IMG/VR virus record: IMGVR_UViG_3300041809_000571
Span: 243,841 to 307,840 of that record
Strand: one strand, 5' to 3'
Source: a virus
Length of the DNA stretch: 64,000 nucleotides
Shown: piece by piece, positions 7,532 through 24,023 of the stretch
How positions within the stretch are numbered: the stretch's first letter is position 1
Layout of the letters: each line of letters starts with the position of its first letter
Position numbers and translations under genes: made by a program
The notes under the pieces: generated by a model
What the model saw: only the letters and a program-made list of their open reading frames with translations
Database searches by the model: none
Told to the model about the DNA's origin: nothing

Positions 7532-7540
7532 ATATATAAG

Positions 7541-8204: not shown

Positions 8205-8615
8205 ATGCCTCCTTGAATTTGGACGGGGACCAACAAGTCAGCGTCGTGGGTCCTAATCAATAATCGCAACAACAGCGACCACAAACGACCAATCACAACT
8301 ACCAACTAAAGTAAGGTTCGACCCGATAGGGTAGCCTTGTTCACCATCCTACAATCTTTATCGTCGGCGGAATTGGAAGTGAGCCGACTATCCGCACTCT
8401 TCTTGCGGCCCCCGGTAACTAATACTGCTGGAGAACCTCATAGAGCTTGTTGCAGAGGTTCTCCAGCTTGCCTCGATTGGAATGAGAAGGGGCGGGAACC
8501 TGTGGTCGGGTTGCGTCCAAGATAAACTGCAAGCACGAATGGCAACCCGCTGCCTCTTCCCTATCGAGAGTGATGGTAACCGACTTCCTGAGTTTGACGG
8601 TCAACGTAGCCTCCG

Positions 8616-8955
8616 TTAACGTCGCTTTTTCGGAACACTGCTGACGCCCACGGCGGGGGTAAGCTCGCCGAGGACATCCTCATCCATCTCGTAACCAATG
8701 ACCGGAGTCTCTGCGTTGGTCGCCTTGATGGCGGCGTCCAGCTTGCGCAGTTCACGGGACAGGTGGGAAATCAGGCTGTCCAGAGCCACGACATCGTAAA
8801 GCGGATTGACTGTCTCTGGGGTGTCACCCTTGAGGCCACGATAACTGGTCCGGCTGGCAGAATTCTCGTTGCGCAGACTGATGAGTTCCTGATGCCGCTC
8901 TTGCAGGGTCTTCTTCCAAGTCAATGCCTCATTGATGGTGATTTGCTTTGTTGCC
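8616..8955 (-). CDS. hypothetical protein (113 aa)
   Basis: Internal start MATKQITINE... is preceded by AAAAGGAGAACCA. The longer 203-aa ORF to 9227 has an implausible low-complexity N-terminal extension. Confidence 0.45.
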
Positions 8956-9696
8956 ATTGGTTCTCCTTTTGAGTTGGTGCGTGACTCACGTTCTAACGCC
9001 ACGGCGTAGTGAGCGCAAACAGAGGGAGTTGCCGCCCGCTCCAGTGGCTCGGTAAAAGAGTTACTAGCTCGGCTCCCATTGCTGAGTAAATCCGTGGTCA
9101 AGCAGCGCTGATTCGCATCACGCACCAAGCTATAATACTGAAAATTTTGTGGACCTATAAGCGGAGTTCTGTGCCTCTTGCGAGGTGACAACCATTCGTC
9201 TAGGGCGGCCATTACTGGACGCCTCAAGCTCTCAACCCGAGGGTTATAGCGAACCGAGCAGGTTCATCCCCTCCTATTCGAGATTGCTCCCCGTGAAGAT
9301 TGCCCGTTTCACCCGGACTTAACCGGCTCGTCTCTGTTGCTCTAATTGTCGCAGTATTGCTACTGCGCCGGGGCGTTACCCCGCACGGTGCTCTGTGTAG
9401 CTCCGACTTTCCTCTCCCCCTTGCGGGGCAGTAGTTGTCCAGTCCACAAACTTTTTCCAAACTTAGGGTTATTGGGAGCGAAGATTCCCTTGGAGCCATC
9501 CGGGTCAAGGGCCTTCAAGGTCAGATAATAACTCATGCTCCCAATGCTCACGCCGTCACCTTACACCCACAAGGTTCATAATCCTGTTGCCAGCCGGGCG
9601 GTATACTCTTCATCCACCCCTTGACCTTGACCCTTACGGTACATGGCTTTTTGTGCTTACGGTGTTTGCATTTAGAACATTTGGCGGAGGCCATAC

Positions 9697-9909
9697 TTAC
9701 CCACCCAACGGTTCAGCCCCTAAAGACATTGCAAGGGCTGTAATTTTATTAACCGTCAACGTCGCCAAGTCCAAAGTTTTACCCATCATCTCAATTTGGG
9801 CTTGAGTCCACGTGGATGCATCAACGGCGTCGTTATTCCAAGAGATTTGGAGTTTACCCCTTGCTGAAACTAATTGCTTACGAACCTCTAAGATTCCTTC
9901 TAACGTCAT
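9697..9909 (-). CDS. small hypothetical protein
   Basis: ATG at 9909 (MTLEGILEVRK...) lies about 25 nt downstream of the GGTGGTATTATATAG promoter-like motif. The listed GTG start at 9939 overlaps that motif. Confidence 0.3.
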   Translation of the reverse strand: MTLEGILEVRKQLVSARGKLQISWNNDAVDASTWTQAQIEMMGKTLDLATLTVNKITALAMSLGAEPLGG

Positions 9910-9971
9910 TTGAAACCCCCAAGACAAAAGTACCCACACTATATAATACCACCGAGAGTCAAAAATGATGG

Positions 9972-10640
9972 TTATTTAATTTCTCTTGCTTTTTCATAGA
10001 CCGCTCGAATGCTCGCAAAGCGTTCTCTGGTAGACAGGGTATGCGGGTGGTAGGTGATGATATCGTTTTCCGGGAGGGGCATCCTCCCCTCCGTCATACT
10101 ATAACGGTCGTCATGCTCCGTGGGGCAGACGCTATTGAACGATAATGTTGCCCATACCCACCAGTCCTCGACATTGTAACAACGGGTGTCCCTTGAACAA
10201 GGCGCTGAGGCGAGGAACTCCAACGCCCTCCTGCTAAGCCAGTACCCGGAGCCTCCATAGGGCTGGTTGTTTCCCCCCACTCCCCGTTGTCCTATATGGT
10301 CATGCCCCTCGAATCCCGAGCGGAGCAGACGGGGAACGCAGGCATAGGTGTCAACATCACATTTGAAAGCGTGGTCATAGCCGTGGGCTACCACCCACTG
10401 GTATGCAGCTTGGACCTTGGACGAGAGGTCCGCATACGTGTCGGAAACATCTAATGAGACCTCATCGTCATCTGCATTCTCTAGTCTAGGATTACCTAGA
10501 AAAAAGCGATAATCAACTGGGCACCCCATCAACCATGTTTCCCTGAGTTGCTGCTGCCAATGACGATGGGCATGGCAACTCATGATGGATATCAGCGGTT
10601 GCAACTGCTCACCCCCACCCTTAAGTGGTTTCCATACCAA
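9972..10640 (-). CDS. Putative Fringe-like (GT31-type) glycosyltransferase
   Basis: Acidic DxD-like ADDDEVSLDVSD plus PYGGSGYWLSRRALEFL resembling the Fringe GGAGFCISR motif. Weak, motif-level only. Confidence 0.4.
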   Translation of the reverse strand: MVWKPLKGGGEQLQPLISIMSCHAHRHWQQQLRETWLMGCPVDYRFFLGNPRLENADDDEVSLDVSDTYADLSSKVQAAYQWVVAHGYDHAFKCDVDTYACVPRLLRSGFEGHDHIGQRGVGGNNQPYGGSGYWLSRRALEFLASAPCSRDTRCYNVEDWWVWATLSFNSVCPTEHDDRYSMTEGRMPLPENDIITYHPHTLSTRERFASIRAVYEKAREIK

Positions 10641-10643
10641 ACC

Positions 10644-11066
10644 CTATGCGCTTCCTACGGCAAACACATTCAAGTAGGCACGATAAATCTCGTAAGCGGC
10701 ACTGTTACCACTCGTACATCTTACACGAAGGTCATAAACGTCTCCTTCGTTCATGATGTCAAGACCCCCTACGGAAATGGGGAACCCTGTGGGGTCAGAG
10801 TTCTCAGCAATCAGATAATTCATCAAACTGCCATTTTTGAATACGGCCAATTGAAAATCCCCACTTCCAGTAACCGCCGTTACAAAAACAGCAATCATTA
10901 CGGGAACCGCAAAAGACACGGTTGAAGTAAGGGAACCCGTCGTGGTGTTCCCAGTCATTCCTGAGTTTTGAACGACGGTCCACGAAGCCTGCTCAAACTG
11001 ATACCACGTATCTTCCGTGTCCAAGGAAAGAGTCTGATACCCTGTAGCTGTCTCACCGTATGTCAT
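10644..11066 (-). CDS. hypothetical protein (possible beta-sandwich fiber-tip protein)
   Basis: 140-aa ORF with no clear motif. Confidence 0.35.
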   Translation of the reverse strand: MTYGETATGYQTLSLDTEDTWYQFEQASWTVVQNSGMTGNTTTGSLTSTVSFAVPVMIAVFVTAVTGSGDFQLAVFKNGSLMNYLIAENSDPTGFPISVGGLDIMNEGDVYDLRVRCTSGNSAAYEIYRAYLNVFAVGSA

Positions 11067-11156
11067 AAAATTCCCCCTTAAAATAAATTCTTCTTCCTAT
11101 AACCACTTTGAAAGTCTAAACTTTCAATCTCTTTGGACAGGAGGCATATCAGACCT

Positions 11157-11606
11157 ATGTCCAAAAGATTAACCTACGCTTATACGGCAGGACTCATTGA
11201 CGGCGAGGGGACCATATCTCTCGTTTACAAGTACAAAAGCAATCCCTACCGCTGGCCGACCATAACCGTGCCAAGCTGCACAAAGGAACTCACCGACTTC
11301 CTGAAAAATCAATTTGGCGGGTGTATCTCCAACAAGAGGCCGGACAAGGTGGGACATACACCCTCAAAGACATGGCGACTCGCCGGGGACAAATCCTTAG
11401 CACTTCTTAATCTACTCCTTCCTTACCTTAAGGAACCCGATAAGATAAGGCGGGCAAAGTTGCTGATTGATAAATACAAGAGGTTGACGCCAAGGAATGG
11501 AAGGTACACTACGGAACAACGTATCAAAAAGTTGGAATTCGAGCATCAGTTCTTGGAGGGAGGAAAGACGAGCCGACAGACCACCCGTATACGCTGGGCA
11601 AGTTAG
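11157..11606 (+). CDS. LAGLIDADG homing endonuclease (single-motif, I-CreI-like size)
   Basis: LTYAYTAGLIDGEGTISL motif. ATG at 11157 follows GGAGG; the ORF-track start at 11133 is TTG. The stop lies 2 nt from the tmRNA 3' end on the opposite strand. Confidence 0.75.
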   Translation: MSKRLTYAYTAGLIDGEGTISLVYKYKSNPYRWPTITVPSCTKELTDFLKNQFGGCISNKRPDKVGHTPSKTWRLAGDKSLALLNLLLPYLKEPDKIRRAKLLIDKYKRLTPRNGRYTTEQRIKKLEFEHQFLEGGKTSRQTTRIRWAS

Positions 11607-11607
11607 T

Positions 11608-11961
11608 TGGTGGAGGCGACGGGGAGTTGAACCCCGTGTCCGAAAAGTGTCACAACAAGAAGACTACACGCTTATCCTGCTTCGTACTGCTCTTTGCCAT
11701 GACTCTGCTGAAACAGGCATATCAGAACCACGGTGCAAGCCTTCATCTCGCCGGATATCGGCTACATCCCCGGTCGCAGCCTCTCTATCGGCGCTTGGCC
11801 TCTACCCGACAGGCTAAAGCAGAGCAAGCGTGCCTAATCTAGCGATTAAGCAAATGCATATTGCGCTGTGGCAATTGCGTTGTTAACCCTTGTTACGGGC
11901 AGGGTAACCTCCCGGCGTGCCTTCCTGTAATGAGCGCTCCCGTCGAAACCAGAACGCCCCC
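11608..11961 (-). ncRNA. ssrA: tmRNA (ssrA-like transfer-messenger RNA), about 354 nt, CCA encoded
   Basis: Minus-strand 5' end GGGGGCGUUCUGGUUUCGACGGGA matches the tmRNA consensus GGGGnUGAUUCUGGAUUCGACGGG. The 3' end GGACACGGGGUUCAACUCCCCGUCGCCUCCACCA is a tRNA-Ala-like T-arm/acceptor with G3:U70, A73 and CCA. A candidate internal tag frame reads AAC AAC GCA AUU GCC ACA GCG CAA UAU GCA UUU GCU UAA (...NNAIATAQYAFA*). Confidence 0.8.
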
Positions 11962-11963
11962 AC

Positions 11964-11980
11964 ACTTACATAATACCACC
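11964..11980 (-). promoter_or_regulatory. Extended -10-like promoter motif GGTGGTATTATGTAAGT, 3 to 19 nt upstream of the tmRNA 5' end
   Basis: TGG-TATTAT sits immediately 5' of the mature tmRNA 5' end, and the same motif family recurs at other gene starts. Confidence 0.5.
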
Positions 11981-12006
11981 AACTACGAGCTTTCGTTGGT
12001 TTTTAC

Positions 12007-12100
12007 TTGGTCCCGGTGTTGGGAGTCAAACCCAATCCATGCCCTAATCTGGGGCTTATGCAGTTTATAAGACTGCTCGTTCGGTCGCAAACTTCACCGG
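12007..12100 (-). tRNA. tRNA-like, type II (long variable arm), isotype undetermined (anticodon loop CUUAUAA, UAU?)
   Basis: Acceptor CCCGGUG/CACCGGG, T-arm UUGGG-UUUGACU-CCCAA, A73-CCA, variable arm GCCC-CAGAUUA-GGGC, anticodon stem GCAGU/ACUGC. The D-arm folds poorly by hand. Confidence 0.4.
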
Positions 12101-12104
12101 GGAA

Positions 12105-12181
12105 TTGGCACCGTGGACGGGACTTGAACCCGCTAATGACCGGCTTGAAGGGCCGGTGACTCGGCGCTTTGTCTTCCACGG
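12105..12181 (-). tRNA. tRNA-Glu(UUC)-like (anticodon loop CCUUCAA, C at position 33)
   Basis: Acceptor ACCGUGG/CCACGGU, T-arm GCGGG-UUCAAGU-CCCGU, G73-CCA, anticodon stem CCGGC/GCCGG. Confidence 0.5.
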
Positions 12182-12185
12182 TATC

Positions 12186-12260
12186 TTGGTAGCCCTGCCG
12201 GGACTCTAACCCGGTTCCGCTGGTTGAAAGCCAGCCATCCTAAACCATAGACGACAAGGC
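12186..12260 (-). tRNA. tRNA-Glu(UUC)
   Basis: Acceptor GGCCUUG/CAGGGCU (two G-U pairs), anticodon arm GCUGG-CUUUCAA-CCAGC, T-arm CCGGG-UUAGAGU-CCCGG, A73-CCA. The D-arm resembles E. coli tRNA-Glu. Confidence 0.6.
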
Positions 12261-12412
12261 CAGAAATTTGAGGCTGCGAAATATCCACGTTTGGGAGTAC
12301 AAGGACCGGTAGCAGCCTCGGTTTATCGGTACCCACTACGTGGCTCAGTTTAGACCGCCGTCCTGATACGACCACGATTGAAACCTGCGGTCAAGGTGTA
12401 TCGTGGCCTCGC

Positions 12413-12487
12413 TTGGAGCACCCGGAGAGAATCGAACTCCCGCATAAAGGGTTTGCAGCCCTCTCCCTTCCCACTTGGGTACGAGTG
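12413..12487 (-). tRNA. tRNA-Cys(GCA)
   Basis: Acceptor GCACUCG/CGGGUGC, anticodon arm GAGGG-CUGCAAA-CCCUU, T-arm GGGAG-UUCGAUU-CUCUC, U73 (Cys identity element), CCA. Confidence 0.7.
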
Positions 12488-12570
12488 CAAATTTGGCTCG
12501 CCTACCACTCTCTCAGTGGCTTTGAACCGTGCGGGCAGCTTTCACCGCCGCAGGCTATCTGGCTCGCAAT

Positions 12571-12645
12571 GTGGAGCACCTGAACGGAATCGAACCGTTG
12601 CATAGCTGTTTTGCAGACAGCCGCCTTTCCACTTGGCGACAGGTG
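12571..12645 (-). tRNA. tRNA-Cys(GCA), second divergent copy
   Basis: Acceptor GCACCUG/CAGGUGC, anticodon arm GCUGU-CUGCAAA-ACAGC, T-arm AACGG-UUCGAUU-CCGUU, U73-CCA. Confidence 0.7.
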
Positions 12646-12647
12646 CG

Positions 12648-12881
12648 TTATTCTTCTTCCTCAGCCGACTCCTTACTTAGGTCCACCGGCTGGCGAATCT
12701 TGGCAATCTTTCTTTCGGTGGATACGGAGAGTCTCACGTACTCCACTCGTGCCCAATGGACGGTGTGAACCGCCATCCACCCGACCACCACCCATTTAGA
12801 AAAGATGGTGAAAATCCTGTCGGGGTTGATGCTTATAAACCAAAGCACCACGCACATAAACCAATGCCACAAAGAAATCAT
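12648..12881 (-). CDS. small hydrophobic protein (2 predicted TM helices) embedded in the tRNA array
   Basis: 77-aa ORF MISLWHWFMCVVLWFISI...FTIFSKWVVVGWMAVHTV with a GGGAGG RBS 4 nt upstream. It sits exactly in the gap between tRNA-Cys and tRNA-Glu. Confidence 0.35.
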   Translation of the reverse strand: MISLWHWFMCVVLWFISINPDRIFTIFSKWVVVGWMAVHTVHWARVEYVRLSVSTERKIAKIRQPVDLSKESAEEEE

Positions 12882-12931
12882 CTAGCCTCCCGTCATGCAG
12901 TGTGTTCCCCCAAAGCATGGCGGGGGTGAAA

Positions 12932-13008
12932 CTGGTAGCCCCGGTGGGATTCAAACCCACGGTCTCCGCCTTGAGAGGGCGGCGTCCTTGGTCGCTAGAC
13001 GACGAGGC
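12932..13008 (-). tRNA. tRNA-Glu(CUC)
   Basis: Acceptor GGCCUCG/CGGGGCU, anticodon arm CCGCC-CUCUCAA-GGCGG, T-arm GUGGG-UUUGAAU-CCCAC, A73-CCA. Confidence 0.65.
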
Positions 13009-13079
13009 CATGTCTTAGCAGGGCACGACTGGCTACGATGAGTTTATGTCAGCGGGAAGCCTGATTCTGTGCCCTAAGT

Positions 13080-13155
13080 TTGGTGGACGGGAAGGGAGTT
13101 GAACCCTCAGTCTCTCGGGTGCGAGCCGAGCGCTTTCCCAGTTAAGCTACCTGCC
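13080..13155 (-). tRNA. tRNA-Ala(CGC)
   Basis: Acceptor GGGCAGG/CCCGUCC with G3:U70 (Ala identity) and one A5-C68 mismatch, D-stem GCUU/AAGC, anticodon arm CUCGG-CUCGCAC-CCGAG, T-arm GAGGG-UUCAACU-CCCUU, A73-CCA. Confidence 0.65.
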
Positions 13156-13160
13156 CAAAT

Positions 13161-13290
13161 GCAATCGTGGAGGGAATCGAACCCTCTCTCCTGTTGCAGC
13201 CTGCAAGCCGCTACAGTTCTTCCCCCCGTTACTTCCAAAGCCAGACAGCCTTCGGTCTTGCAGGACCTATTGCCATCTCGGGGGCTGAAA
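13161..13290 (-). ncRNA. Unresolved structured RNA with a perfect tRNA T-arm (GAGGG-UUCGAUU-CCCUC at 13169..13185) but no identifiable 7-bp acceptor partner or encoded CCA
   Basis: The T-arm is seen directly. Searches for a 5' acceptor strand complementary to CACGAUU failed, so this may be a type-II, intron-containing or degenerate tRNA. Confidence 0.3.
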
Positions 13291-13291
13291 C

Positions 13292-13367
13292 TTGGTGCGC
13301 CGAGCAGGACTCGAACCTGCGACCTCTTCCGTGTCAGGGAAGCGCTCTAACCACTGAGCTACCAGCG
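13292..13367 (-). tRNA. tRNA-Val(GAC)
   Basis: Acceptor GCGCUGG/UCGGCGC, D-arm GCUC-AGUGGUUA-GAGC, anticodon arm CUUCC-CUGACAC-GGAAG, T-arm GCAGG-UUCGAGU-CCUGC, A73-CCA. Confidence 0.7.
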
Positions 13368-13468
13368 CAAACGCATGGATTTCCCTACGGTCGCCTAGAC
13401 CCCGTCTGTTTATGTACTGCTTTGCGGGGCACTGCTACTGGTTAGCTCGCTACTAGGGCCATGCGTAA

Positions 13469-13546
13469 AATGGCGGTCCATACGGGATTTGAACCCGTGG
13501 TCTTCTCCGTGACAGGGAGACGAGGACTCCAGACTCCTCCAATAGA
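13469..13546 (-). tRNA. tRNA-Asp(GUC)
   Basis: Acceptor GGUCUAU/AUGGACC, D-stem GAGG/CCUC, anticodon arm UCUCC-CUGUCAC-GGAGA, T-arm ACGGG-UUCAAAU-CCCGU, G73 (Asp-type), CCA. Confidence 0.7.
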
Positions 13547-13552
13547 CCGAAA

Positions 13553-13631
13553 CTTGGCGGTGAGTACGGGATTTGAACCCGTGTTTCTACCGTGACAGGG
13601 TAGTGTCTTAGGCCGGGCTAGACCAACCCAC
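13553..13631 (-). tRNA. tRNA-Asp(GUC), second divergent copy in tandem
   Basis: Acceptor GGUGGGU/ACUCACC, anticodon arm CUACC-CUGUCAC-GGUAG, T-arm ACGGG-UUCAAAU-CCCGU, G73-CCA. Confidence 0.65.
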
Positions 13632-13723
13632 CGTAATCGGACCCTATTAACCCGCTCATGGGCGGAGGCTTTCGCCGGGGCGGCACATAGCACAAATACT
13701 ATCCCGTTCGTATGCCGCTAAAC

Positions 13724-13798
13724 TTGGTGGACCTAAAGGGAATCGGACCCTTGACCTCTCGGCTGCCGACCGAGCGCTCTCCCGCTGAGCTACAGGCC
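13724..13798 (-). tRNA. tRNA-Ala(GGC) (C at position 33)
   Basis: Acceptor GGGCCUG/UAGGUCC with G3:U70, D-arm GCUC-AGCGGGA-GAGC, anticodon arm CUCGG-UCGGCAG-CCGAG, T-arm AAGGG-UCCGAUU-CCCUU, A73-CCA. Confidence 0.55.
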
Positions 13799-13960
13799 CA
13801 CAAAAATTCGGGACAACCGGCTGGTTAGGCTAGTCATCCGCAGGTTCTACTGCTCGGGGTCCCTTTTCAGGGGAACCACCACAGTCCCCCTTACTGAGGG
13901 ACCCTGCTGGTAGAACCTCGCCACTCGTCAGCTTCGACAGCCCTTAGAGTGACTACAATC

Positions 13961-14034
13961 TTGGAGCGGGTGACGGGACTCGAACCCGTCTCTACAGCTT
14001 GGAAGGCTGCGGCACAACCTCTATACCACACCCG
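13961..14034 (-). tRNA. tRNA-Gly(UCC)
   Basis: Perfect acceptor GCGGGUG/CACCCGC, anticodon arm GCAGC-CUUCCAA-GCUGU, T-arm ACGGG-UUCGAGU-CCCGU, U73-CCA. Confidence 0.7.
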
Positions 14035-14125
14035 CAAATCTTGTGAGGACATTGACGCAGCCCCCTGTTTACGTTGACCGGCGTGTCAGAGCCGGTGTCC
14101 TGCCGCTGGACCTCAGCGGACTTAC

Positions 14126-14199
14126 TTGGTGGAGCTACGGGGATTTGAACCCCGATTCCTTGCGTGCAAGGCAAGTGTCCTGCCGTTAGACGATAGTCC
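14126..14199 (-). tRNA. tRNA-Ala(UGC)
   Basis: Acceptor GGGACUA/UAGCUCC with G3:U70 and one A4-C69 mismatch, anticodon arm CUUGC-CUUGCAC-GCAAG, T-arm CGGGG-UUCAAAU-CCCCG, A73-CCA. Confidence 0.55.
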
Positions 14200-14204
14200 C
14201 AAAC

Positions 14205-14279
14205 TTGGAGCGGGCGGTGGGGTTCGGACCCACGACCTCTTCCTTGGCAAGGAAGCATTCTACCACTGAACTACGCCCG
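14205..14279 (-). tRNA. tRNA-Gly(GCC)
   Basis: Perfect acceptor GCGGGCG/CGCCCGC, D-arm GUUC-AGUGGUA-GAAU, anticodon arm CUUCC-UUGCCAA-GGAAG, T-arm GUGGG-UCCGAAC-CCCAC, U73-CCA. The overall sequence closely resembles E. coli tRNA-Gly(GCC). Confidence 0.75.
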
Positions 14280-14351
14280 CAAACCGCCAAGTAGGTTCTT
14301 AACCAATATGCATCGGGTCTTGGACCGTTCCTGCATTACCCTTGGCGAAAT

Positions 14352-14430
14352 ATGGTGCGCCGTGAAGGAATTGGACCTTCGACCTCTCGCTTGTGGAGCG
14401 AGCGCTCTAAACCGGGCTGAGCTAACAGCG
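14352..14430 (-). tRNA. tRNA-Val(CAC) (C at position 33; long D-loop)
   Basis: Acceptor GCGCUGU/ACGGCGC, D-arm GCUC-AGCCCGGUUUA-GAGC, anticodon arm CUCGC-UCCACAA-GCGAG, T-arm GAAGG-UCCAAUU-CCUUC, A73-CCA. Confidence 0.55.
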
Positions 14431-14438
14431 CATCGAAC

Positions 14439-14513
14439 TTGGTACCCACTGAGAGAATCGAACTCCCGACATCCTCCTTGTAAGAGAGGCGGTCTTCCAC
14501 TGGCCTAAGCGGG
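14439..14513 (-). tRNA. tRNA-Val(UAC)
   Basis: Acceptor GCCCGCU/AGUGGGU (two G-U pairs), anticodon arm CCUCU-CUUACAA-GGAGG, T-arm GGGAG-UUCGAUU-CUCUC, A73-CCA. Confidence 0.6.
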
Positions 14514-14526
14514 CAAATCTTGTACT

Positions 14527-15683: not shown

Positions 15684-16227
15684 CCTTGCCCTCCTCGTTC
15701 AGTATCAGATAAGGCTTGCGCACATGGGCGCTGAAATACGTCGCCGCCATGAGCGCTTTTTCCAGCCGGGGCTTGGCGGAATCATCAGGGGTGACACTGA
15801 GCGCCCCGAGAGCATAAGGGCTTCCGCAGCCGATTGCCTCAAAGCCATCTACCCGCTCGAATACTTGAAAGTCTCCCTCAAAGCGGAAGATATGCCCCTT
15901 GAAGGCCACGAGGAATATCCCGGTGCTGCTATGCTCATCCTGTTGTGCCATGAAGCCGCCCACATTGAACGTCCGGCGCACCGCCTCAATAAACTCGGTT
16001 GCCATGAACTTTATCAGTGGGACCTTGGGGTCCTTATAGACAGGGGGTTCCAGCTTGTATTGAAGAAGCTGTGTCATACGCATCGACCCCACTGCTCCAA
16101 TCAAGTAGGGTCCATTAAAGAATGCCTTCCTGTTGGTGAGAGTCACCATATCCTCACCATCAGAGGCCGCAGAATCAGCGCCCATCCAAACCTTTCCGTT
16201 CTCAACCACGGCTGCTACACAAGACAT
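15673..16227 (-). CDS. HslV/proteasome-beta-like Ntn hydrolase (peptidase T1 family)
   Basis: MSCVAAVVENGKVWMGADSAAS aligns to the HslV N-terminus [21 protein letters not shown], and IGCGSPYALGAL aligns to HslV IGSGGPYAQAAA. Ser2 (after Met removal) would be the N-terminal nucleophile. Confidence 0.6.
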   Translation of the reverse strand: MSCVAAVVENGKVWMGADSAASDGEDMVTLTNRKAFFNGPYLIGAVGSMRMTQLLQYKLEPPVYKDPKVPLIKFMATEFIEAVRRTFNVGGFMAQQDEHSSTGIFLVAFKGHIFRFEGDFQVFERVDGFEAIGCGSPYALGALSVTPDDSAKPRLEKALMAATYFSAHVRKPYLILNEEGKDVA

Positions 16228-16694
16228 TGCTTCTCCTTTGGGACGCCGACGAAGGCGACTTGCCGAGCTATTTTACTCGGAGGCCACTCTAGGTTAATAC
16301 CAGATAATCGGAGAGTCTGAGTGACATTCACCCCCTCCGCCTCGGGACAGAAATCAGCGACATAATCCTCATGCTCCACGAGAAACGCCGTAACCTTGGC
16401 AGCGAGTTTCTTGCGTGCCCCGGTCTGCCAGTACAGGCAACACCGAAGTTGCCGTTCCGACCACTGCGGATGACGCAACTTCATCCTTCGCATATGGTTT
16501 GCTAAGTCGAATTCATTGATTATAGCGTAAACGGGTTGGGAGGTATCTATCTTATCAACAAACCGAATGCACTCCGGGGGGCACCCTACTTTATGTCCGT
16601 AACATGGACAGCCCTTTGGATGACCGGGGTACGGGAGCAGACAAAGCTTCCCTGAGTCAGGATATAGTGCGATTTGACGCAATTCCACGACCAT
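16215..16694 (-). CDS. hypothetical Cys-rich protein (CxC...C...C cluster, possible Zn-binding)
   Basis: 159-aa ORF with PKGCPCYGHKVGCPPEC and no assignable family. Confidence 0.4.
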   Translation of the reverse strand: MVVELRQIALYPDSGKLCLLPYPGHPKGCPCYGHKVGCPPECIRFVDKIDTSQPVYAIINEFDLANHMRRMKLRHPQWSERQLRCCLYWQTGARKKLAAKVTAFLVEHEDYVADFCPEAEGVNVTQTLRLSGINLEWPPSKIARQVAFVGVPKEKQCLV

Positions 16695-16702: not shown

Positions 16703-16957
16703 CTAAGAGTAATACTTCGCATAACCCCGATTCAGAACCCGCAAATTGCGGTGCCTCTGCTGATTGCTTTTGAGAAAAGAAATCAAGTTGGTCTTAACAC
16801 TGCGGATGTTGTGAATGGGGAAAGGTCCTGCTTTGATGTGATGCAGAAGAAGTATGGCAGTGCCATCCTGTCCAACTTTTTGAATGTCCGCCACAGCTTC
16901 ATCCTTAGAGCGGGGGCAGCATGGCCCCGGATACCGGCAGTTACACTCCGCCTGTCG
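16703..16957 (-). CDS. small Cys-rich hypothetical protein
   Basis: Start placed at the second Met (MRQAECNCRYPGPCCPR...), which follows GGAGGATTTT. The TGGTATACT motif lies immediately upstream. Confidence 0.4.
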   Translation of the reverse strand, partial: RQAECNCRYPGPCCPRSKDEAVADIQKVGQDGTAILLLHHIKAGPFPIHNIRSVKTNLISFLKSNQQRHRNLRVLNRGYAKYYS

Positions 16958-16969
16958 CATAAAATCCTC

Positions 16970-16989
16970 CACTCTCAGTATACCACGTG
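16970..16989 (-). promoter_or_regulatory. Extended -10-like motif CACGTGGTATACTGAGAGTG (minus strand)
   Basis: TGG-TATACT, the same family as the tmRNA promoter, 10 to 25 nt upstream of the RBS and ATG. Confidence 0.45.
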
Positions 16990-17071
16990 CGGGATGGACG
17001 CCGAAGGAATTTTTAGCTTCCGGCAGCGTCCATCGGGGGGCGGGGTACGATAGGGGACTCTACTACGGGGC

Positions 17072-17362
17072 TTAGCCGAGGGTGATTTTACGGATATTAT
17101 CGGCAGCGTTCCCCGCTATTTTGGCATCAAGACTTGTGGCAAGGGTGACTTTAGGAAGCTCCACCTCTACCATGGCGATTTGACTCGCCGCAATGAGCAC
17201 AAACTTGTTCTCCTTTTCCAACTTCTTGAGGAGACCCACACTGGCATACTGCACAATCGCCTGCATGGCGAGAGCCTCAGCATGTTCAGATGGGACGGGT
17301 AACTCCTGCACCTCCGTAGTACCATCCACGAAAGTCAGAACGAACTTAAGAATTGTTTCCAT
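17072..17362 (-). CDS. hypothetical protein
   Basis: 96-aa ORF with AAAGGA upstream of the ATG. Confidence 0.4.
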   Translation of the reverse strand: METILKFVLTFVDGTTEVQELPVPSEHAEALAMQAIVQYASVGLLKKLEKENKFVLIAASQIAMVEVELPKVTLATSLDAKIAGNAADNIRKITLG

Positions 17363-17385: not shown

Positions 17386-19290
17386 CTACAAGTCACACGA
17401 GCCGTTGGAACAGGCGACTTCCTTCATCGCCGTGGTGTGGTCGTCTTTCTCAAACTCAGGAAGCTTCGACCAGTCAATTTCCGGCATCTTGAGATTTGCC
17501 GCCCGGTACTCCACTTCGGATATCTCCGTGTAGGGAGCCTGCTTGTAGATGTGATTAGTGAACGGCAGGAAGGCTATCCCGCCGATTTGGTCAAAGTGCT
17601 TGTAGACCCATGTAGCCACTTCCAGCCATTCATGGTCCCGGACATAGATGGTCGTACTGGGGTTATGTTCGGTCCAGTGCTGACGGTAAGTGAGGTAGAG
17701 TTCAAGCTGTTCGATAGCGGTCAGCTTGTTCCGAGTGATGGACCCCTCGGGGGAGGCCAAGGGGAAGAAGAATACATCCACATCGTTGGGCTTCGTGACA
17801 TCCGGCTCATTGGGAACTCCACAAGCCTTGAGGAATGCTCCGATGGGATTCTTACGGTCTTCCCGGATAGCCCGCATGAGGTATTCGCTAAACCTCGTGT
17901 GAATGCCCGGCGAGCAGTTGACAAGCTGGCTCACAGTGCCGGACGGCTTGACGCAGGTGACGGCGACACTGGGGGTGATGCCCAACCTTTCCGCCCATTC
18001 CACGTTGGTAGCAACGGCATGTAGACGAAGGTGGTCAAGAAGAACGGTAAGCTCCTTGCCGTTGGTGGAAAGCAGTGGATTGTCCATAATACCCGAGAGT
18101 GAAACGCCCAATAGGCGCTCCTCCTCGGCGTTTTTCTGCCAGTCCTTACGCAGGTACCTAAATTCCGTTAGCGTCGATTGTAGGGTGCCTAGAATCGCCG
18201 CAAGGCGTATTTTACGTTCAAGGCTGGCGGCGTCGTCGGATGGACGGCAGACAACTTCGGTGAGGTTGCACAACCCCTTCGACCGGAGGATGATTTCGCC
18301 GCAAGGGTTGATTCCAAACTCAATACCCTCCCACTTACGGCGACCTACGGACTTGGCTTTCTTGACGGCAGCATCCCGGTTGTAGATGCCCCGTTCCCCG
18401 GACCGGCTCTCACAGAGTGACAACCACTCCCGGATGAAGGTGACCATCTCTGGTTTTTCGGTGTAAACGGCGGAGTTGTTGGCTAAGGCCCGTTGAGGAT
18501 TTTCAATCCACCACTGACCGTTCTTAGCGTTGCGCATCCGGTCATCGGATAGGTTGGAGAGGGATATCATTGCCGACCGGCGCACACCACCTGAAACCAC
18601 GATGTCGGCTACCATACACATGAGGTCATGACATTCGAGGGACGTGAGCTTGCGTCCGGCTGCATTCTTGAAAAGTTGGACAGTGAATTTGAAGAGACGG
18701 TCTAGCGGCCCCGGCCCGGATGCTCTGCCGCCGAAAGTCTTAAGCGGCATACCAGCCGGGCGGACAGAGGAGAGGTCCCATTGTGGAATTGAACCACCGT
18801 AGAGCAAGGCGATGAGTTGGCGGAAACCAGAAGCCCAGCCAATTTTTGAATCACGAATCTTGATGATGGTATCAACGGGGTAGAAGTTCTCGGCAACGGT
18901 AGGAAGTTGGTTTACATATTGGCGCTCTACGGAGAAACCTAAGCCTGCACCGCACATACTGATATACATGGCTTCGTCAAATGCACGGGGGTCATCAATG
19001 GCAAGATAAGAGCAGTTATAGGCGGCGACTTCGTCTTTTTCAAGTGCCTTCCCAGCGGTCACCATGGCTCGCATAGAGGGCATTACTTCCAGATTAAGAA
19101 TAGCGTTTTCCAACTCTTTTGAAGTCTCTTCTCGAATATCAGTGGGGATTCTTTTGGATATAAATTCGATGTATCTGTGGACGGTTTCTGACCAGTCTTC
19201 CCGGCGACCCTTTTCGGGAATCCAACGGGCGTAGCGGGATTTGAAAATGTAATTCTGAAACGGCGTAACGGCACCACTCTTCAAAGTCAT
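17386..19290 (-). CDS. Ribonucleotide reductase, single-chain (class II adenosylcobalamin-dependent-like)
   Basis: 634 aa with the RNR active-site region NPCGEIILRSKGLCNLTEV and an overall RNR large-subunit-like sequence. The class assignment (NrdJ-like rather than class I) is inferred from size and single-chain nature. Confidence 0.75.
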   Translation of the reverse strand: MTLKSGAVTPFQNYIFKSRYARWIPEKGRREDWSETVHRYIEFISKRIPTDIREETSKELENAILNLEVMPSMRAMVTAGKALEKDEVAAYNCSYLAIDDPRAFDEAMYISMCGAGLGFSVERQYVNQLPTVAENFYPVDTIIKIRDSKIGWASGFRQLIALLYGGSIPQWDLSSVRPAGMPLKTFGGRASGPGPLDRLFKFTVQLFKNAAGRKLTSLECHDLMCMVADIVVSGGVRRSAMISLSNLSDDRMRNAKNGQWWIENPQRALANNSAVYTEKPEMVTFIREWLSLCESRSGERGIYNRDAAVKKAKSVGRRKWEGIEFGINPCGEIILRSKGLCNLTEVVCRPSDDAASLERKIRLAAILGTLQSTLTEFRYLRKDWQKNAEEERLLGVSLSGIMDNPLLSTNGKELTVLLDHLRLHAVATNVEWAERLGITPSVAVTCVKPSGTVSQLVNCSPGIHTRFSEYLMRAIREDRKNPIGAFLKACGVPNEPDVTKPNDVDVFFFPLASPEGSITRNKLTAIEQLELYLTYRQHWTEHNPSTTIYVRDHEWLEVATWVYKHFDQIGGIAFLPFTNHIYKQAPYTEISEVEYRAANLKMPEIDWSKLPEFEKDDHTTAMKEVACSNGSCDL

Positions 19291-19541
19291 AGGACTCTCC
19301 TGTAGTTTAGCCTGCGGTCCTTCTGTCGGGATTTGGAACGTCTGCGGTCATACTTGCGGCTGTTTATGGGTCCGGTAGTGAAATTGCAAAATTACTTGCA
19401 AACTTCTCCGGGCACAAAAAAATCACAACACCAATGGGGATTTCGAGGAGTGGGGAAAATTGAAGTCAATAGTGGGTTTGAAGTAGTCATGAAAAATATT
19501 TTTTGGGTTCCGGTCACAAGCCCCGGAATAGAATAATACTG

Positions 19542-20012
19542 CTATTTCCAGCAATCACAAAACTCTCTATCGGTAGCAAGACTGTTGGGGTCTCGCCTAT
19601 CTTTCCAGCCTATACCCAAGCACTTTTTGCAGTGCTTATCCGGCTGAGGAACATGCGGGGTATCCCACGGATGGTCTTTGGGGTTGTAGTCGGGTGGTGT
19701 ATCTTCCACCATCCGCCGCCCGTTCCGGCGTACAAACCTAACTGTAAGAACTTGCTCTTTGTACCACTGGTCACACCCCTTGAAGTTGGGGTTAAACAAG
19801 CAGTGGATAGCCCGCCGAATCTCTCTCTGCGGAATGGGTTCATCATCATCCTCATTCCAATCCCCAACCCAAATTTTCCATTTAGCGGAGGGAGAGAATT
19901 TCTGCGTCGGAGAGGAAACAGGGGAATTCACCGGAGAGGAGACAGGAGGAGCAGGTTTCTCTTCCCCCAAAACTTTGAACGTGTTGCTAAGGTCAAACGG
20001 TTGCTGCGCCAT
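19542..20012 (-). CDS. hypothetical protein
   Basis: 156-aa ORF with Cys pairs near the C-terminus (CKKC...CDC). Confidence 0.4.
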   Translation of the reverse strand: MAQQPFDLSNTFKVLGEEKPAPPVSSPVNSPVSSPTQKFSPSAKWKIWVGDWNEDDDEPIPQREIRRAIHCLFNPNFKGCDQWYKEQVLTVRFVRRNGRRMVEDTPPDYNPKDHPWDTPHVPQPDKHCKKCLGIGWKDRRDPNSLATDREFCDCWK

Positions 20013-20019
20013 GTATCTC

Positions 20020-20655
20020 CTATTTCCAGTTTTCTTCTTCCACGGGGGAAGCCGGAACAGCAGATGTTTCCGGTTCTTGCTTTGGTTCTGGTTCTACCCG
20101 CCGAGCCGACTTCCCTTCGGTTCGGTTCGGTTCGGTTATATTAGATTCGGTTGTCCCGAGCGGAAGTGAGTAAGTCACGTCTTTTCTATAGTTTCGGAGT
20201 TTCAAGTTGTACCCGCTCACTGCCAGTTTAGTGCAGGTACAGTACCAGTTCGCTGCCAGACAACTGCCCGGACACTGCCGGACCAGTGCCAGCTTACTGC
20301 CAGTTCGCTGCCCTTTCACTGCCACATGGTCCTTAACCTTATGACCCCATTTGGGGTTCCACAAGATTCCGTTGCAGTCGTTGCACCTGAAAAGGTGGGC
20401 ATACTTGTACAACCACTGGGTGAGCGTCCGGTACCTAACCCCGATGAGTTGCGCTAGCTCCCAAGCATCAGTTGGGAAGGTGCCCAAATACCACTGTTTG
20501 AGGAGCAGGCGAAAGTAGATAAGCTCCGCCTCTTTCTGACGGTCTTTCCGCATCTTTTGAACGTGTAAATCCCCCTCCCAATCCGCCCAATTGATGGGCA
20601 TAATGGGGGGCACTGAGTCTTCGATGGAGTACTTAGCCAAACAACCTCCTATCAA
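20020..20655 (-). CDS. Putative replication initiator / replisome organiser (HTH-like N-terminal region, Cys-rich C-terminal region) containing a phased iteron array
   Basis: 211 aa, directly upstream of the DnaB-like helicase. Its coding region carries about 10 direct repeats of an 11-bp unit. Similarity to the lambda O-type arrangement is inferential. Confidence 0.4.
   Translation of the reverse strand: MIGGCLAKYSIEDSVPPIMPINWADWEGDLHVQKMRKDRQKEAELIYFRLLLKQWYLGTFPTDAWELAQLIGVRYRTLTQWLYKYAHLFRCNDCNGILWNPKWGHKVKDHVAVKGQRTGSKLALVRQCPGSCLAANWYCTCTKLAVSGYNLKLRNYRKDVTYSLPLGTTESNITEPNRTEGKSARRVEPEPKQEPETSAVPASPVEEENWK
20220..20330. repeat. Iteron-like array: about 10 phased 11-bp direct repeats (TGGCAGYR-type on the minus strand), plus (CGGTT)4 at 20118..20137 and an AT-richer stretch at 20138..20210
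   Basis: CTGCC cores start at 20220, 20253, 20264, 20275, 20286, 20297, 20309 and 20320, giving an 11-bp (one helical turn) period. Confidence 0.6.
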
Positions 20656-20684
20656 TAACTTGAGTATATGTTACCTTGATATAT

Positions 20685-22280
20685 CTAAAGTGTATCAGCC
20701 ATCTCGGAATCAATGTTTCTTACCTCCTGAATCACCTGCTTCAACTCCGTGGTCAGGGGGCGTTGTTCTGAGGCGGCAGCACCCTTACGGACGAATGCAC
20801 CTGTCCAAGGAGATATTACCGCAATTTGCGCCAAAGGTTGTGCTCCGACACGCTTTTTTACGCATCCAATTTCAATTTCGTTGCGTTCCGGTGCCTTCAT
20901 TTCGATGTCCGACCATACCGTGAGGATGACATCCATGTCATCTTTCAGTTCGGAAAAAGTGCGGATAGCATCCAGTGTGTAGTGCCCGATTCCCTCTTTG
21001 AAGTCCCCCTTCATAGCTTCCTTGTAGGACTCCTTGGTAATTTGCACGGGACTCATGACGATGATGCCCCGGCTCTCGTCAAACTGGCGGGTGAACTTCT
21101 GGATGCGGTGAATGAGTTCCTTCATCCCTTGGTCTTTCCACCGGGGGTCACCGGGAATCTCCAGCCGGGTGATGTAGTCCAAAAGCAGGAAGTCATAGTG
21201 GTTCTTACTGTGATAGAGCTTGAGCCAGTCTTCAATGGAATCCCAGTCACGATTGGGGAACTCTTTGACTTCGAGCTTGCCCGGCAGGTTCCTTCCATTT
21301 TCGATGTCGAAGCAGATGTCCTGCATGTGCCGGATGTGTTCCGAAGTGACGTTCCGGTTTTCCCACTCTTTGGTGGGAGGGAGGACAAGCTCACCATAGT
21401 CCGGGTGAGAGGAATGCAAGTAAGTCATCACGTCCCAAATTCGCTTGGACGTGTGCTCAGTGGAAACATATAGACCGTTGAATCCTTGGCGTAACCAGTT
21501 GTAGACTATGTAGTTGGCAAGTGTGGTTTTGCCATCATTTGCCTGCCCGACGATGCCGATGAAGCGGTTGTCTGTCTGCTTGCCAATGACCACGCACTTG
21601 TCAACGTTGTCCAGACCAAGCAGCATCCGACCGTTTTCATTCTGCTCGTTCATCAGGTTGGCAAAACCCTCCCGGACTACCTGCATGTTCTGGTGCAGGA
21701 ATCCATCTACAGGCGGTGTATCGTCGGTGTAGTCTTCCAACCACTTCATGCGCAGCCAACGCATGGCAGGAGCGGGACCCCGCTCTTCTTTCTTTTCCCC
21801 CTTCTCAAACCACTTGAAGGAGTCCATACCGTTGGCAATTTTGGAGTATTGGTTAGCAGCGACAGAGTGCCAAGCTCCTCGGACCTTGGAGAAGGCATTC
21901 TCCAGAACCATGAGGGATTCCAGCCCCCGGACAGATTCCGTGGGGGGATTCCATGTGGTCAAGGTATCAAGCTGTTGCAGGGTTTCCGTGGTTTCATCTT
22001 TTTCACCATCCTCACCCCCACGAGAGAACTCCTTGATGTGGTCGGGGTTGGTGACGATGTACCCCTTAACGTCCTGCGGACCCACGGGCAGGCGTTTGAA
22101 GCGGGTGATGTATTTCCATATAGCCTTCATGGTTCTGCTGGTAACCACTTCATCGCTATCTGGCATGTAGTCGATGGTGAAGGAGTACTTGATGGTCCAC
22201 ATCAATTTCTTCTTGTTTTGTAGGACAAATGGGTACAAATCCTGCGTGCAAAGACGCCGGGCAAGCTCAGTAAGATACAT
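20685..22280 (-). CDS. DnaB-family replicative helicase (SF4)
   Basis: Walker A GQANDGKTTLA, Walker B-like FLLLDYITRL and RecA-like IIVMSPVQITKES match DnaB-type motifs. Confidence 0.7.
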   Translation of the reverse strand: MYLTELARRLCTQDLYPFVLQNKKKLMWTIKYSFTIDYMPDSDEVVTSRTMKAIWKYITRFKRLPVGPQDVKGYIVTNPDHIKEFSRGGEDGEKDETTETLQQLDTLTTWNPPTESVRGLESLMVLENAFSKVRGAWHSVAANQYSKIANGMDSFKWFEKGEKKEERGPAPAMRWLRMKWLEDYTDDTPPVDGFLHQNMQVVREGFANLMNEQNENGRMLLGLDNVDKCVVIGKQTDNRFIGIVGQANDGKTTLANYIVYNWLRQGFNGLYVSTEHTSKRIWDVMTYLHSSHPDYGELVLPPTKEWENRNVTSEHIRHMQDICFDIENGRNLPGKLEVKEFPNRDWDSIEDWLKLYHSKNHYDFLLLDYITRLEIPGDPRWKDQGMKELIHRIQKFTRQFDESRGIIVMSPVQITKESYKEAMKGDFKEGIGHYTLDAIRTFSELKDDMDVILTVWSDIEMKAPERNEIEIGCVKKRVGAQPLAQIAVISPWTGAFVRKGAAASEQRPLTTELKQVIQEVRNIDSEMADTL

Positions 22281-22381
22281 GGAAACCCTTCTCGGTGGTG
22301 TGACTGCTGATTTTCATTGCGTATATTCTAAATACCATTTCGATAGTGATTCTACGAAAGATGGCTTCATAGGCCGTTCAT

Positions 22382-22882
22382 ATGGGCAAGCAAACCGACA
22401 CCCCGGACCTCGTGAACGTGGAACTACTGCACTACAAGTTTCAGTTCAAAAAACTCACATGGAGGGAAGAAATGGCTATCCATGTTGACAAGGACAAAGA
22501 CCCCCTCCGGGATATACTGTCCTACGCCTTGGTGCAAGTGTCGGGTTTACTCCCCGTTTCCATAGAAGAATCCAAAAAGGTGATAGCGGCCATTCCAGAG
22601 CCTATCATGACCCGAGTTTGGAAGGTCTACAGAGGGTTGTTACCACCCGCCAAGAAGTTTTCCACCATAGACTTATATCAGGCCCCCAAACCCTCCGCTT
22701 TTATGGGTAAGGTGATGGAGGACGACAACAAGGAAGAGAGCACCCATGATAAGATGGTCCGAGAGATGGAGGCCCGCTTTGGTAAGGCAGAGGTAGCTGA
22801 TGAAGCGGAGTTGAGTCGGAGACTGCTGGAACAGGCCCGTAAAGAAAGACGGATATTTGAAAAGGCTACACCCGATGGCTAA
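22382..22882 (+). CDS. hypothetical protein
   Basis: 166-aa ORF, the first gene of the rightward block after a divergent AT-rich intergenic region. Confidence 0.4.
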   Translation: MGKQTDTPDLVNVELLHYKFQFKKLTWREEMAIHVDKDKDPLRDILSYALVQVSGLLPVSIEESKKVIAAIPEPIMTRVWKVYRGLLPPAKKFSTIDLYQAPKPSAFMGKVMEDDNKEESTHDKMVREMEARFGKAEVADEAELSRRLLEQARKERRIFEKATPDG

Positions 22883-24023
22883 AGAAGACATATCGGCTGC
22901 GGTTTTGGGAACCTCTCCCGCTGGTAGGTGGTTGGGCGGTGGTAGGGATACAGGCGGGGGTAAGACTACCTTGGGGGTGGAGCTTGCTAAGAAGTTGGGT
23001 GAGGGTATCATCAACCGGGCACCCACTCAATATGTGCAAGAGGTACGGGATAAAATCACGGAAGCCTGCGGGGAGCTTATCAGTGTGGGAGCAAGGATAC
23101 GTCCCCTGATGATTGACGGCAAGCAGTGCGGGTGGGTCCGGGGATTTCACGATACGGAGAAGAACCTCCTCAAGCGATGGGTGCCTGACCAGCTTGAGTT
23201 CGTGTCCCAATGCCTCCTTCTCAGCACCACTCTCACCGAGGAGGAGCTAGATTCCCTGTCCTCGATAGAGATACACCGGCTGGTAAAGCTCGTTACAGCG
23301 ATGAGCGACCGGGACGCTTCCCTGTTTCCCTATTTGTCGGCATTCTCCACTACGAGAACTTCCGAGATGCTTTGGCATGGGCACGATAATGCCTTATTCT
23401 CTGATAATCGTTCCATACTTATGCCGAATGGGAGGACGATGCGGATTATGTCGCCGTCCAATCACACCCGGCTTTGGTCAACACTGTGCGTTTACAGGGA
23501 GCAGGCTAAAAAGCGTTTGGATGAGTCTTGGAACGCTGTCATGATTATGCGCCCATGGACGGGAAAGTCTGCGGATGGGCTAGTAGGAGAGCTTAAGGAG
23601 GCCACAAAGCGAATGCGGGTGGATGCTTTGGAGCCATGGGAGGTAGTTGTGGAAACACCGGCTGATAAAGTTCTTGATGATGGGTGGGCACACCTTGAAA
23701 ACATGGAAACGAAAGAAGGCATGATTAAGGAACTCCATGGGATGCTATCCAACGACCGGCACGAGCAGTTGATGACGAGGTTTGAACATCAGCAAATGGA
23801 AGCCGCCGAGCGCCGAAAGCGGGAGATAGAGGGCCTGATTTCCAAGCGGGGAGGAATTGGGATAACCAGTGAGACCATCAGGATTGAGACAGAGGAACAG
23901 GTCATCAAACGGGAGAGAGACCTTATGATGGGTAGGGTGACCCCGGCCCCCGCCAACAGGGAGAAGTCCGACCCCTCTCCCATGGATGTTCGAGAGCGGA
24001 TAAGGAAGTATCAGGAAAGCTGA
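22857..24023 (+). CDS. hypothetical protein
   Basis: 388-aa ORF with no clear motif. Confidence 0.4.
   Translation: MKRLHPMAKEDISAAVLGTSPAGRWLGGGRDTGGGKTTLGVELAKKLGEGIINRAPTQYVQEVRDKITEACGELISVGARIRPLMIDGKQCGWVRGFHDTEKNLLKRWVPDQLEFVSQCLLLSTTLTEEELDSLSSIEIHRLVKLVTAMSDRDASLFPYLSAFSTTRTSEMLWHGHDNALFSDNRSILMPNGRTMRIMSPSNHTRLWSTLCVYREQAKKRLDESWNAVMIMRPWTGKSADGLVGELKEATKRMRVDALEPWEVVVETPADKVLDDGWAHLENMETKEGMIKELHGMLSNDRHEQLMTRFEHQQMEAAERRKREIEGLISKRGGIGITSETIRIETEEQVIKRERDLMMGRVTPAPANREKSDPSPMDVRERIRKYQES

Follow-up and report, generated by a model that had tools for sequence, protein, structure and literature searches.

In phage lambda, ori-lambda lies midway along the gene for O, where iterons are followed by an AT-rich tract and where two extra iterons add 13 residues to the O protein (PMC7466680). 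Across lambdoid phages, the iterons and the specificity domain of the initiator vary together (PMC7466680). In pSK41, four Rep boxes lie centrally in rep and are bound by the N-domain of its product, and the central domain that they encode is a dispensable linker (PMC5703833; PMC7145576). Here we analyse a 64,000-nt stretch of IMG/VR record IMGVR_UViG_3300041809_000571 (hereafter the window, with 1-based positions counted within it), from a large tailed phage without a cultured relative. The window carries an array of ten 11-bp direct repeats inside an open reading frame (ORF) that adjoins a gene for a DnaB-like helicase, and we propose that this array and its flanks probably form a replication origin within the gene of its own initiator.

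Lambda iterons are inverted-repeat sites of ~19 bp, set about two helical turns apart. The window locus resembles lambda O/ori-lambda in having an origin-type array mid-gene, with proposed iterons ahead of a modestly AT-rich tract, and in both genes the array begins ~330–350 nt into the coding sequence. It differs in that lambda has 4–6 iterons, whereas the family described here has 7–15 contiguous 11-bp direct units, and in that the partner is a phage helicase encoded upstream rather than a loader (P) for the host DnaB encoded downstream. Phage_rep_O is not matched by the window protein (0 families) and is absent from the top 25 of the 35 families listed for 40 members of its family. The lambda O/ori-type organization that was first proposed for this locus (the original prediction) is therefore apt for an in-gene array followed by AT-rich DNA, but not for sequence kinship with O, for gene order, in which the helicase comes before the initiator, or for the AT-rich flank, which is weak.

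The locus is also like pSK41 RepA_N in placing its repeats in the linker-coding centre of the gene (residues ~110–146 in the window). RepA_N elements have fewer iterons, which are semi-palindromic about a poly-A tract, whereas the window units are simple direct 11-mers accompanied by a conserved (NAACC)n run. Compared with the RepA_N elements (pSK41 and pTZ2162; PLE RepA), the setting is a large tailed phage and not a Firmicute plasmid, and Pfam gives no match to RepA_N (PF06970). A further comparison is R1 parC, a centromere in which ten 11-bp direct repeats, one per helical turn, are coated by a small DNA-binding protein.

Results

A phased 11-bp array within a protein-coding gene

The elements of the proposed origin and the gene that holds them are as follows:

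20020–20655, minus strand: ORF carrying the repeats, 211 aa from TTG 20655; proposed origin-binding initiator
20218–20327, minus strand: array of ten head-to-tail 11-bp units, about one per helical turn; proposed iterons (candidate initiator-binding sites)
20165–20214, minus strand: modestly AT-rich stretch, 60–67% AT over ~50 bp, directly after the array; candidate DNA-unwinding element
20146–20160, minus strand: conserved box CTCGGGACAACCGAA, encoding LGTTE and kept at the nucleotide level, synonymous positions included
20116–20137, minus strand: (AACCG)4.4 pentamer run, found by Tandem Repeats Finder as (TTCGG)4.4 on the plus strand

The array is real, as the original prediction of about ten phased 11-bp repeats had it. 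Its coding-strand unit is AACTGGCAGTG (consensus aaCtGGCAGTG; plus-strand consensus CACTGCCAGTT), and Tandem Repeats Finder reports a period of 11 with 9.8 copies at 20217–20324 and 61% matches between units. Exact CTGCC cores on the plus strand start at 20220, 20253, 20264, 20275, 20297, 20308 and 20319, all seven congruent modulo 11, and the remaining three slots are filled by the degenerate cores GTGCA, GTACC and GTGCC. Across the 64 kb there are 192 CTGCC sites on both strands, or ~0.17 expected per 110 nt of one strand; thus, seven in a single phase is far beyond chance. When the whole window was scanned for self-match at periods 4–39, this locus ranked top at periods 11, 22 and 33 (0.62–0.64), with other periods that are not multiples of 3 peaking at 0.39–0.52. 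None of 144 control segments of 700 bp, drawn from the window and related loci, reached 0.51 at period 11.

A position weight matrix scan of the window for more 11-mers revealed no second cluster. A loose group of four iteron-like matches at 16852–17018 (for example, CACTGCCATAC and AACTGCCGGTA), within a 377-bp gap between the ORFs at 16215–16694 and 17072–17362, is unphased and was set aside as probably due to chance. Rfam identified no RNA family over 19000–23000, and a scan for promoters and terminators placed no site in or beside the array.

Translation runs through the array, whose units fall in all three frames and supply ORF residues ~110–146. Among 12 related genes the reading frame across the array is open in every one, with the downstream motif in frame, and the three window units placed in the frame that would turn the consensus into a TGA stop each depart from it there (CGA, TGT and TGT). 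In an AlphaFold2 model of the ORF product (40-sequence alignment, pLDDT 75.5), residues ~10–105 are predicted to form a helical N-domain of winged-helix type (pLDDT 85–96) and residues 140–170 a confident structured helix followed by a low-complexity tail; the pentamer-encoded residues 172–178 fall below 50. Between the two confident segments, the array-encoded residues 110–135 also fall below 50 and are predicted to be a disordered linker. The array thus sits in the linker of a winged-helix protein that is syntenic with a replicative-type helicase. As its codons specify a disordered linker, the DNA would be free to evolve as a binding site so long as the frame stays open.

Relatives retain the period but not the repeat sequence

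We examined DNA from 12 lineages with 27–57% protein identity: the window, L005, L011, L012, L014, L015, L016, L017, L019, L020, L026 and L030. L019, L020 and L026 form a short-linker subfamily, and L030 is a 182-kb contig (CAZYCV010000001.1) from a metagenome-assembled genome of Terracidiphilus (Acidobacteriota). Loss of the repeats in relatives that keep the protein had been named beforehand as evidence against an origin; instead, the array is phased in 12 of 12 lineages, with a period-11/22/33 self-match of 0.51–0.73 at the same gene position, just past the N-domain. The repeated units differ among lineages (coding strand):

window: TGGCAGTG
L005: TGGCACGC
L011 and L014: G(T/C)GCTCCGA
L016 and L017: TGTG..GGAGA
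L019: TGCCAGT
L020: TGCGAGT
L026: TGCAGT
L030: CACGCAG

The array is under DNA-level constraint and co-varies with lineage. Synonymous recoding of eight genes lowered the 11-bp self-match from 0.47–0.68 to 0.34–0.46, with the observed value reached by 0–1 of 2,000 recodings for each gene; for the window array, 0.60 was observed against 0.37 expected, and none of 2,000 recodings reached the observed value. The 11-bp phasing therefore exceeds what the amino-acid sequence explains. Given selection at the DNA level and an open frame, this stretch carries two codes at once.

The window and L005 have initiator-like proteins that are 57% identical. The two arrays align without gaps at ten units each, and the identities per unit position (of ten) are 8, 5, 4, 7, 10, 10, 7, 9, 3, 3 and 3. 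A GGCA core is kept in 7–10 of the ten units, independent of frame, and the three bases after it change from GTG in the window to CGC in L005 in 7 of 10 units, a switch that reads at the sequence level as a concerted change of specificity. Identity by codon position is 0.67/0.85/0.46 in the N-domain, flat within the array and 0.74/0.76/0.74 in the segment after it (gene nt 439–540), of which the AT-rich stretch is a part. Single-nucleotide polymorphisms among four 98%-identical contigs are too few to inform; one falls in the array, at a non-core position.

These data bear on whether the array has no DNA-level function at all, having been left behind by slippage or duplication of an 11-bp unit in a Cys-rich linker that tolerates it, or arising from an 11-residue repeat in the peptide. 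We regard this as very improbable. The length of the linker does vary among relatives, Cys residues recur in it, and in no lineage is the 33-bp (11-aa) self-match weaker than the 11-bp one, with L012 and L015 as the clear cases. However, a peptide repeat would give a period of 33 and not 11, the 11-bp signal depends on synonymous sites, and the encoded peptide is predicted to be disordered. Ongoing slippage is difficult to reconcile with units that are only 61% alike, and neither process fits ten gapless units held in the same register in 57%-identical orthologues, with a concerted three-base change, or twelve independent lineages that keep period 11 with unrelated cores. A contingency-locus reading was rejected on the same grounds of unit divergence and of a unit number kept across 57%-identical orthologues. 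We hold with high confidence that the array is a selected protein-binding DNA array of some kind.

Conserved DNA follows the array

The original prediction had also described a (CGGTT)4 flank and a locally AT-rich segment. The former stands as the pentamer run at 20116–20137, and the latter shrinks to ~50 bp at 20165–20214 with only 60–67% AT, compared with 48% for the window ORF as a whole. The same place in eight relatives has 63–77% AT, against 44–58% for their genes, and always lies directly after the array. The AT-rich stretch encodes a conserved KLRNYRKDV helix, and its nucleotide consensus AGAAAaGAtGTG is kept across 11 lineages.

The box that follows has the consensus CTCGGgACAACCGAA over 11 lineages with 27–57% protein identity, and 9 of these use ACA followed by ACC for its two Thr residues. 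Each of these aligned lineages has a run of (NAACC)n type after the box, and the run is, unlike the 11-mers, sequence-conserved family-wide (consensus AACC.AACCgAAcC.AAcC; (AACCA)5.4 in L005). In the window, the run is in 5-nt register with the upstream box. Box CTCGGGACAACC and a (NAACC)5–7 run are conserved at the nucleotide level, synonymous sites too, in the window (20116–20160), L005, L011–L017, L019, L020 and L026; taken together, the post-array DNA kept across 11 lineages, including synonymous positions, reads AGAAAaGAtGTG...CTCGGgACAACCGAAcc.AACC.AACCgAAcC. A 5-bp periodicity ~100–150 nt past the array is among the top self-match periods in 8 of 12 genes. One possibility is that the (NAACC)n run is a landing or priming site for a common factor.

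An initiator-like protein family with weak affinity to DUF1376

The repeats lie, as claimed, in a 211-aa ORF, but its start is probably TTG 20640, judging by the AGGAGG that precedes it (20645–20650) and by database entry P0001; this gives 206 aa. DNA similarity searches against 50,697 phage records yielded no match to cultured phages, and neither did a tblastn search of the ORF against the same records. A word-indexed search recovered a single distant homologue (P0002, 57% identity), and a HMMER search of 1.84 billion representatives recovered 58 relatives, 37 of them at E<1e-10. Family members share a conserved N-domain of ~90 residues, a Cys-rich stretch of variable length, a KLKNYKNDVxSGLPLGTTEPNxTEPN motif and a tail that varies; a few members close it with an acidic peptide of DDDELA type or similar (DDELA, DDELIS, DDDLV).

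The claim that this ORF is initiator-like is upheld by its winged-helix N-domain, its adjoining helicase and its remote affinities, which agree with one another but are weak. Fold matches of the N-domain are led by replication-initiator winged helices and include ORC2, RepA_N and DnaD winged-helix domains. In BFVD, the leading matches are DUF1376 proteins and replisome-organiser N-domains, with probabilities for DUF1376 of up to 1.0 but E values of 0.07 or worse. Pfam DUF1376 (PF07120) is weakly matched by 17 of 40 family members (best E 1e-4), although not by the window protein at E≤1, and five members match phrog_9327, a 'primosomal protein'. The window protein is probably a distant branch of DUF1376, for which a literature search found no published function.

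Within DUF1376 itself, ydaU of the Escherichia coli K-12 Rac prophage (L018, 2472–2620) contains four AAGCAGATGTTCAA-like 14-mers at gene nt 353–444, spaced 33, 33 and 12, and an (ATAAAG)3.3 run at nt 482–501, ~38 bp past the last 14-mer. The gene, which encodes the DUF1376 protein YdaU, precedes ydaV, annotated as a 'putative ATP-binding protein', whose product we take to be DnaC-like. The ydaU repeats are fewer, longer and non-contiguous compared with the window array. By analogy, they may mark an in-gene origin, and in-gene origins may be general to the DUF1376-like superfamily. A literature search found no paper that places Rac oriJ relative to ydaU.

A conserved helicase and a candidate partner protein flank the gene

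Two genes directly flank the repeat-bearing ORF:

20685–22280, minus strand: 531-aa DnaB-like (RecA-fold) helicase, directly upstream of the repeat-bearing ORF and transcribed in the same direction
19542–20012, minus strand: 156-aa ORF starting 7 nt past the stop of the repeat-bearing ORF, with a DnaJ-like C-terminal CxxCxGxG...CxC motif

The original prediction was correct that the ORF adjoins a DnaB-like helicase gene, but had the order reversed: on the minus strand the helicase (22280 to 20685) comes first and the ORF (20655 to 20020) follows. The helicase matches phrog_19 (1e-11) and phrog_239 (5e-10) and is 24% identical to annotated phage DnaB-like helicases (tblastn E 1e-8). A Pfam DnaB_C match is weak and limited to the syntenic gene of a relative; PDB and NCBIfam return generic RecA/KaiC P-loop matches only, and the N-terminal ~200 aa have no assigned domain. 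Synteny of the helicase with the initiator family is seen in the window, L005, the P0060 contig and L030. The same upstream position is occupied in L013 by an unclassified 530-aa product cut by the contig end, and in L015 by a cut 444-aa ORF. Besides this helicase, the neighbours of the repeat-bearing ORF include a ribonucleotide reductase, and the window has a gene resembling class II ribonucleotide reductase.

The window helicase is 94% identical in protein to its L005 counterpart (4840–6435), whereas other neighbours are 32–65% identical, mostly 55–65%, and the repeat-bearing protein 57%. On these sequences, the helicase would be either very strongly constrained or recently exchanged. The 156-aa ORF, whose L005 orthologue is 57% identical, is related to a C-terminal extension that is fused to the initiator elsewhere (hhalign probability 80.5%, E 1.3e-5, 83 columns; colinear BLASTP matches at E 0.003 and 0.013). 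In L030, the fused 401-aa form of the initiator lies after the helicase. This relation suggests gene fission or fusion, and the 156-aa ORF is probably a split-off C-domain or a partner of the initiator.

The adjoining genes raise the question of which protein reads the 11-mers. In SaPI Rep and P4 alpha, the helicase itself recognises iterons beside its gene. An origin in which the array is read by the 156-aa zinc-finger protein or by the N-terminal 200 residues of the helicase, with the winged-helix protein acting as organiser or loader, perhaps on the (NAACC)n run, is in our judgement an outside possibility. It would account for a family N-domain that is well conserved while the 11-mers are not, and for a (NAACC)n run and GGGACAACC box whose conservation resembles that of the N-domain. 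The ORF downstream keeps pace with the array in divergence (57% identity) and, in other lineages, forms one protein with the initiator; the unassigned ~200-aa domain of the helicase offers a second candidate. However, two phages with iteron cores that differ at three of seven core positions have helicases that are 94% identical, so the product of the repeat-bearing ORF is the likelier reader of the two. A zinc-finger reader sits poorly with the several family members that have no fused zinc-finger extension (adjoining ORFs were not checked for). Reading by the winged-helix protein is favoured by its recognition region, which differs between clades with different cores: the recognition-helix region is YRTLTQWLYKY in the window and YRTMVTWLGKY in L005, and clades with similar recognition helices have similar cores, although this correlation is phylogenetic only. 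The recognition helix is placed at window residues ~75–88.

Other features of the window

Fifteen tRNA genes, every one on the minus strand, cluster at 7455–14514 (Gly ×4, Ala ×3, Val ×3, Asp ×2, Glu ×2 and Cys ×2), with duplicates of Cys-GCA and Asp-GTC. The baseplate/tail module is encoded on the plus strand. A 1,259-aa ORF on the minus strand (1777–5556) combines collagen triple-helix repeats (E 4e-49) with a pectate-lyase-like domain and is probably a tail fibre or depolymerase; it is the cause of a DNA self-match at periods 9, 18, 27 and 36 at ~3300–5170. A homing-endonuclease-like ORF on the plus strand (59605–60537; phrog_314, E 7e-18) has on one side a 493-aa ORF with a head-decoration-like segment and on the other an 843-aa ORF whose C-terminal part is NUDIX-like.

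Discussion

We propose, at a probability of roughly 60%, that the array and its flanks are a replication origin inside the gene of its own initiator. The origin would span 212 bp (20116–20327). The winged-helix N-domain of the 206-aa protein would occupy the ten 11-bp iterons next to one another, at one per helical turn, and the resulting continuous nucleoprotein array would destabilise the AT-rich 50 bp beside it. The DnaB-like helicase that the phage itself encodes immediately upstream would then be recruited to the opened stretch, probably via the C-terminal tail of the initiator and/or the 156-aa zinc-finger partner. We infer from the arrangement of these elements which protein binds the array, that melting and helicase loading take place there, and that replication starts there.

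Several observations weigh against an origin at this site. The AT-rich flank is weak and encodes a conserved, confidently predicted helix rich in Lys, Asn and Tyr, so that its composition may be partly a coding effect. The family-wide conserved (NAACC)n run has no explanation in the origin model, and the window protein matches no curated family in Pfam, PHROGs or NCBIfam. Iterons of origins usually measure ~17–22 bp, which makes contiguous 11-bp units unusual for an origin; the geometry of such units is that of the R1 parC centromere. Furthermore, GC skew, proposed originally as a check, does not single out the array. The cumulative skew of the window peaks at 28,951 and reaches its lowest point at 60,712; each extreme falls inside a run of co-directional plus-strand genes, and the skew therefore is not set here by transcription direction alone. 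A local plateau does span 17.5–22 kb, but it coincides with the switch in transcription direction at 22.3 kb, and the check is not diagnostic.

The absence of an origin signal from GC skew is one reason to consider other functions for the array: a centromere-like partition site, a pac site in a small-terminase-like gene, or an autoregulatory or roadblock operator of the helicase–initiator operon. Ten contiguous 11-bp direct repeats would suit partition by the parC precedent, small terminases have an N-terminal helix-turn-helix and often carry pac inside their own gene, and selection at the DNA level with lineage-specific cores fits any cognate pair of protein and site. Yet R1 parC lies between genes, where it flanks the par promoter, and its reader is a ribbon-helix-helix protein encoded next to an actin-like ATPase; the window array shares none of these features. 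No ParM/ParA-like, ribbon-helix-helix, TerS or TerL family was detected in the ORF or its neighbours, and neither the ORF nor its family has a terminase match in Pfam, PHROGs or NCBIfam. Replication is instead indicated by the conserved neighbour, which is a helicase of replicative type, by the only curated affinities of the family (DUF1376 and 'primosomal protein'), by the replication-initiator winged helices that lead the fold matches, and by the AT-rich stretch that directly follows the array in every lineage. We therefore consider these other functions, taken together, unlikely.

A more specific version of the in-gene origin can be put forward as a speculative proposal, to be judged as a whole. 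It would constitute a distinct design in which 7–15 initiator sites, gap-free and one per 11 bp, build a continuous winged-helix filament. The 11-bp pitch, greater than the 10.5 bp of relaxed B-DNA, might hold the DNA underwound and so melt the AT-rich neighbour, and the (NAACC)5–7 run might be a separate site, independent of clade, at which the conserved phage helicase or primase lands or starts priming. Translation in three frames into the initiator linker would then force origin specificity and protein to co-evolve.

The nearest cultured match of the L030 helicase is in Tunturiibacter phage Tunturi_5. Along with the acidobacterial assembly from which the L030 contig derives, this gives a hint that the phage clade infects Acidobacteriota.

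This module represents a previously undescribed family of putative initiators from an uncultivated phage clade; its proposed iterons are contiguous, come one per turn and are translated in three frames, and a conserved pentamer run accompanies them. No gene of the helicase–initiator module has a curated annotation. If the origin reading is correct, the origin and initiator are pinpointed for an uncultivated phage clade from soil and peat whose members are large and tRNA-rich, and DUF1376-like 'primosomal' proteins would gain a testable role as origin binders. At least 12 cognate initiator/iteron pairs, differing in their cores, would also be available as a natural series for work on origin-specificity switching. 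Additionally, the locus is a clean example of dual coding: the protein-binding DNA array also encodes, across three frames, a disordered linker, and stop codons are avoided unit by unit. The 11-bp/33-bp periodicity and the GGGACAACC(NAACC)n signature could be used for annotating origins in metagenomic phage contigs.

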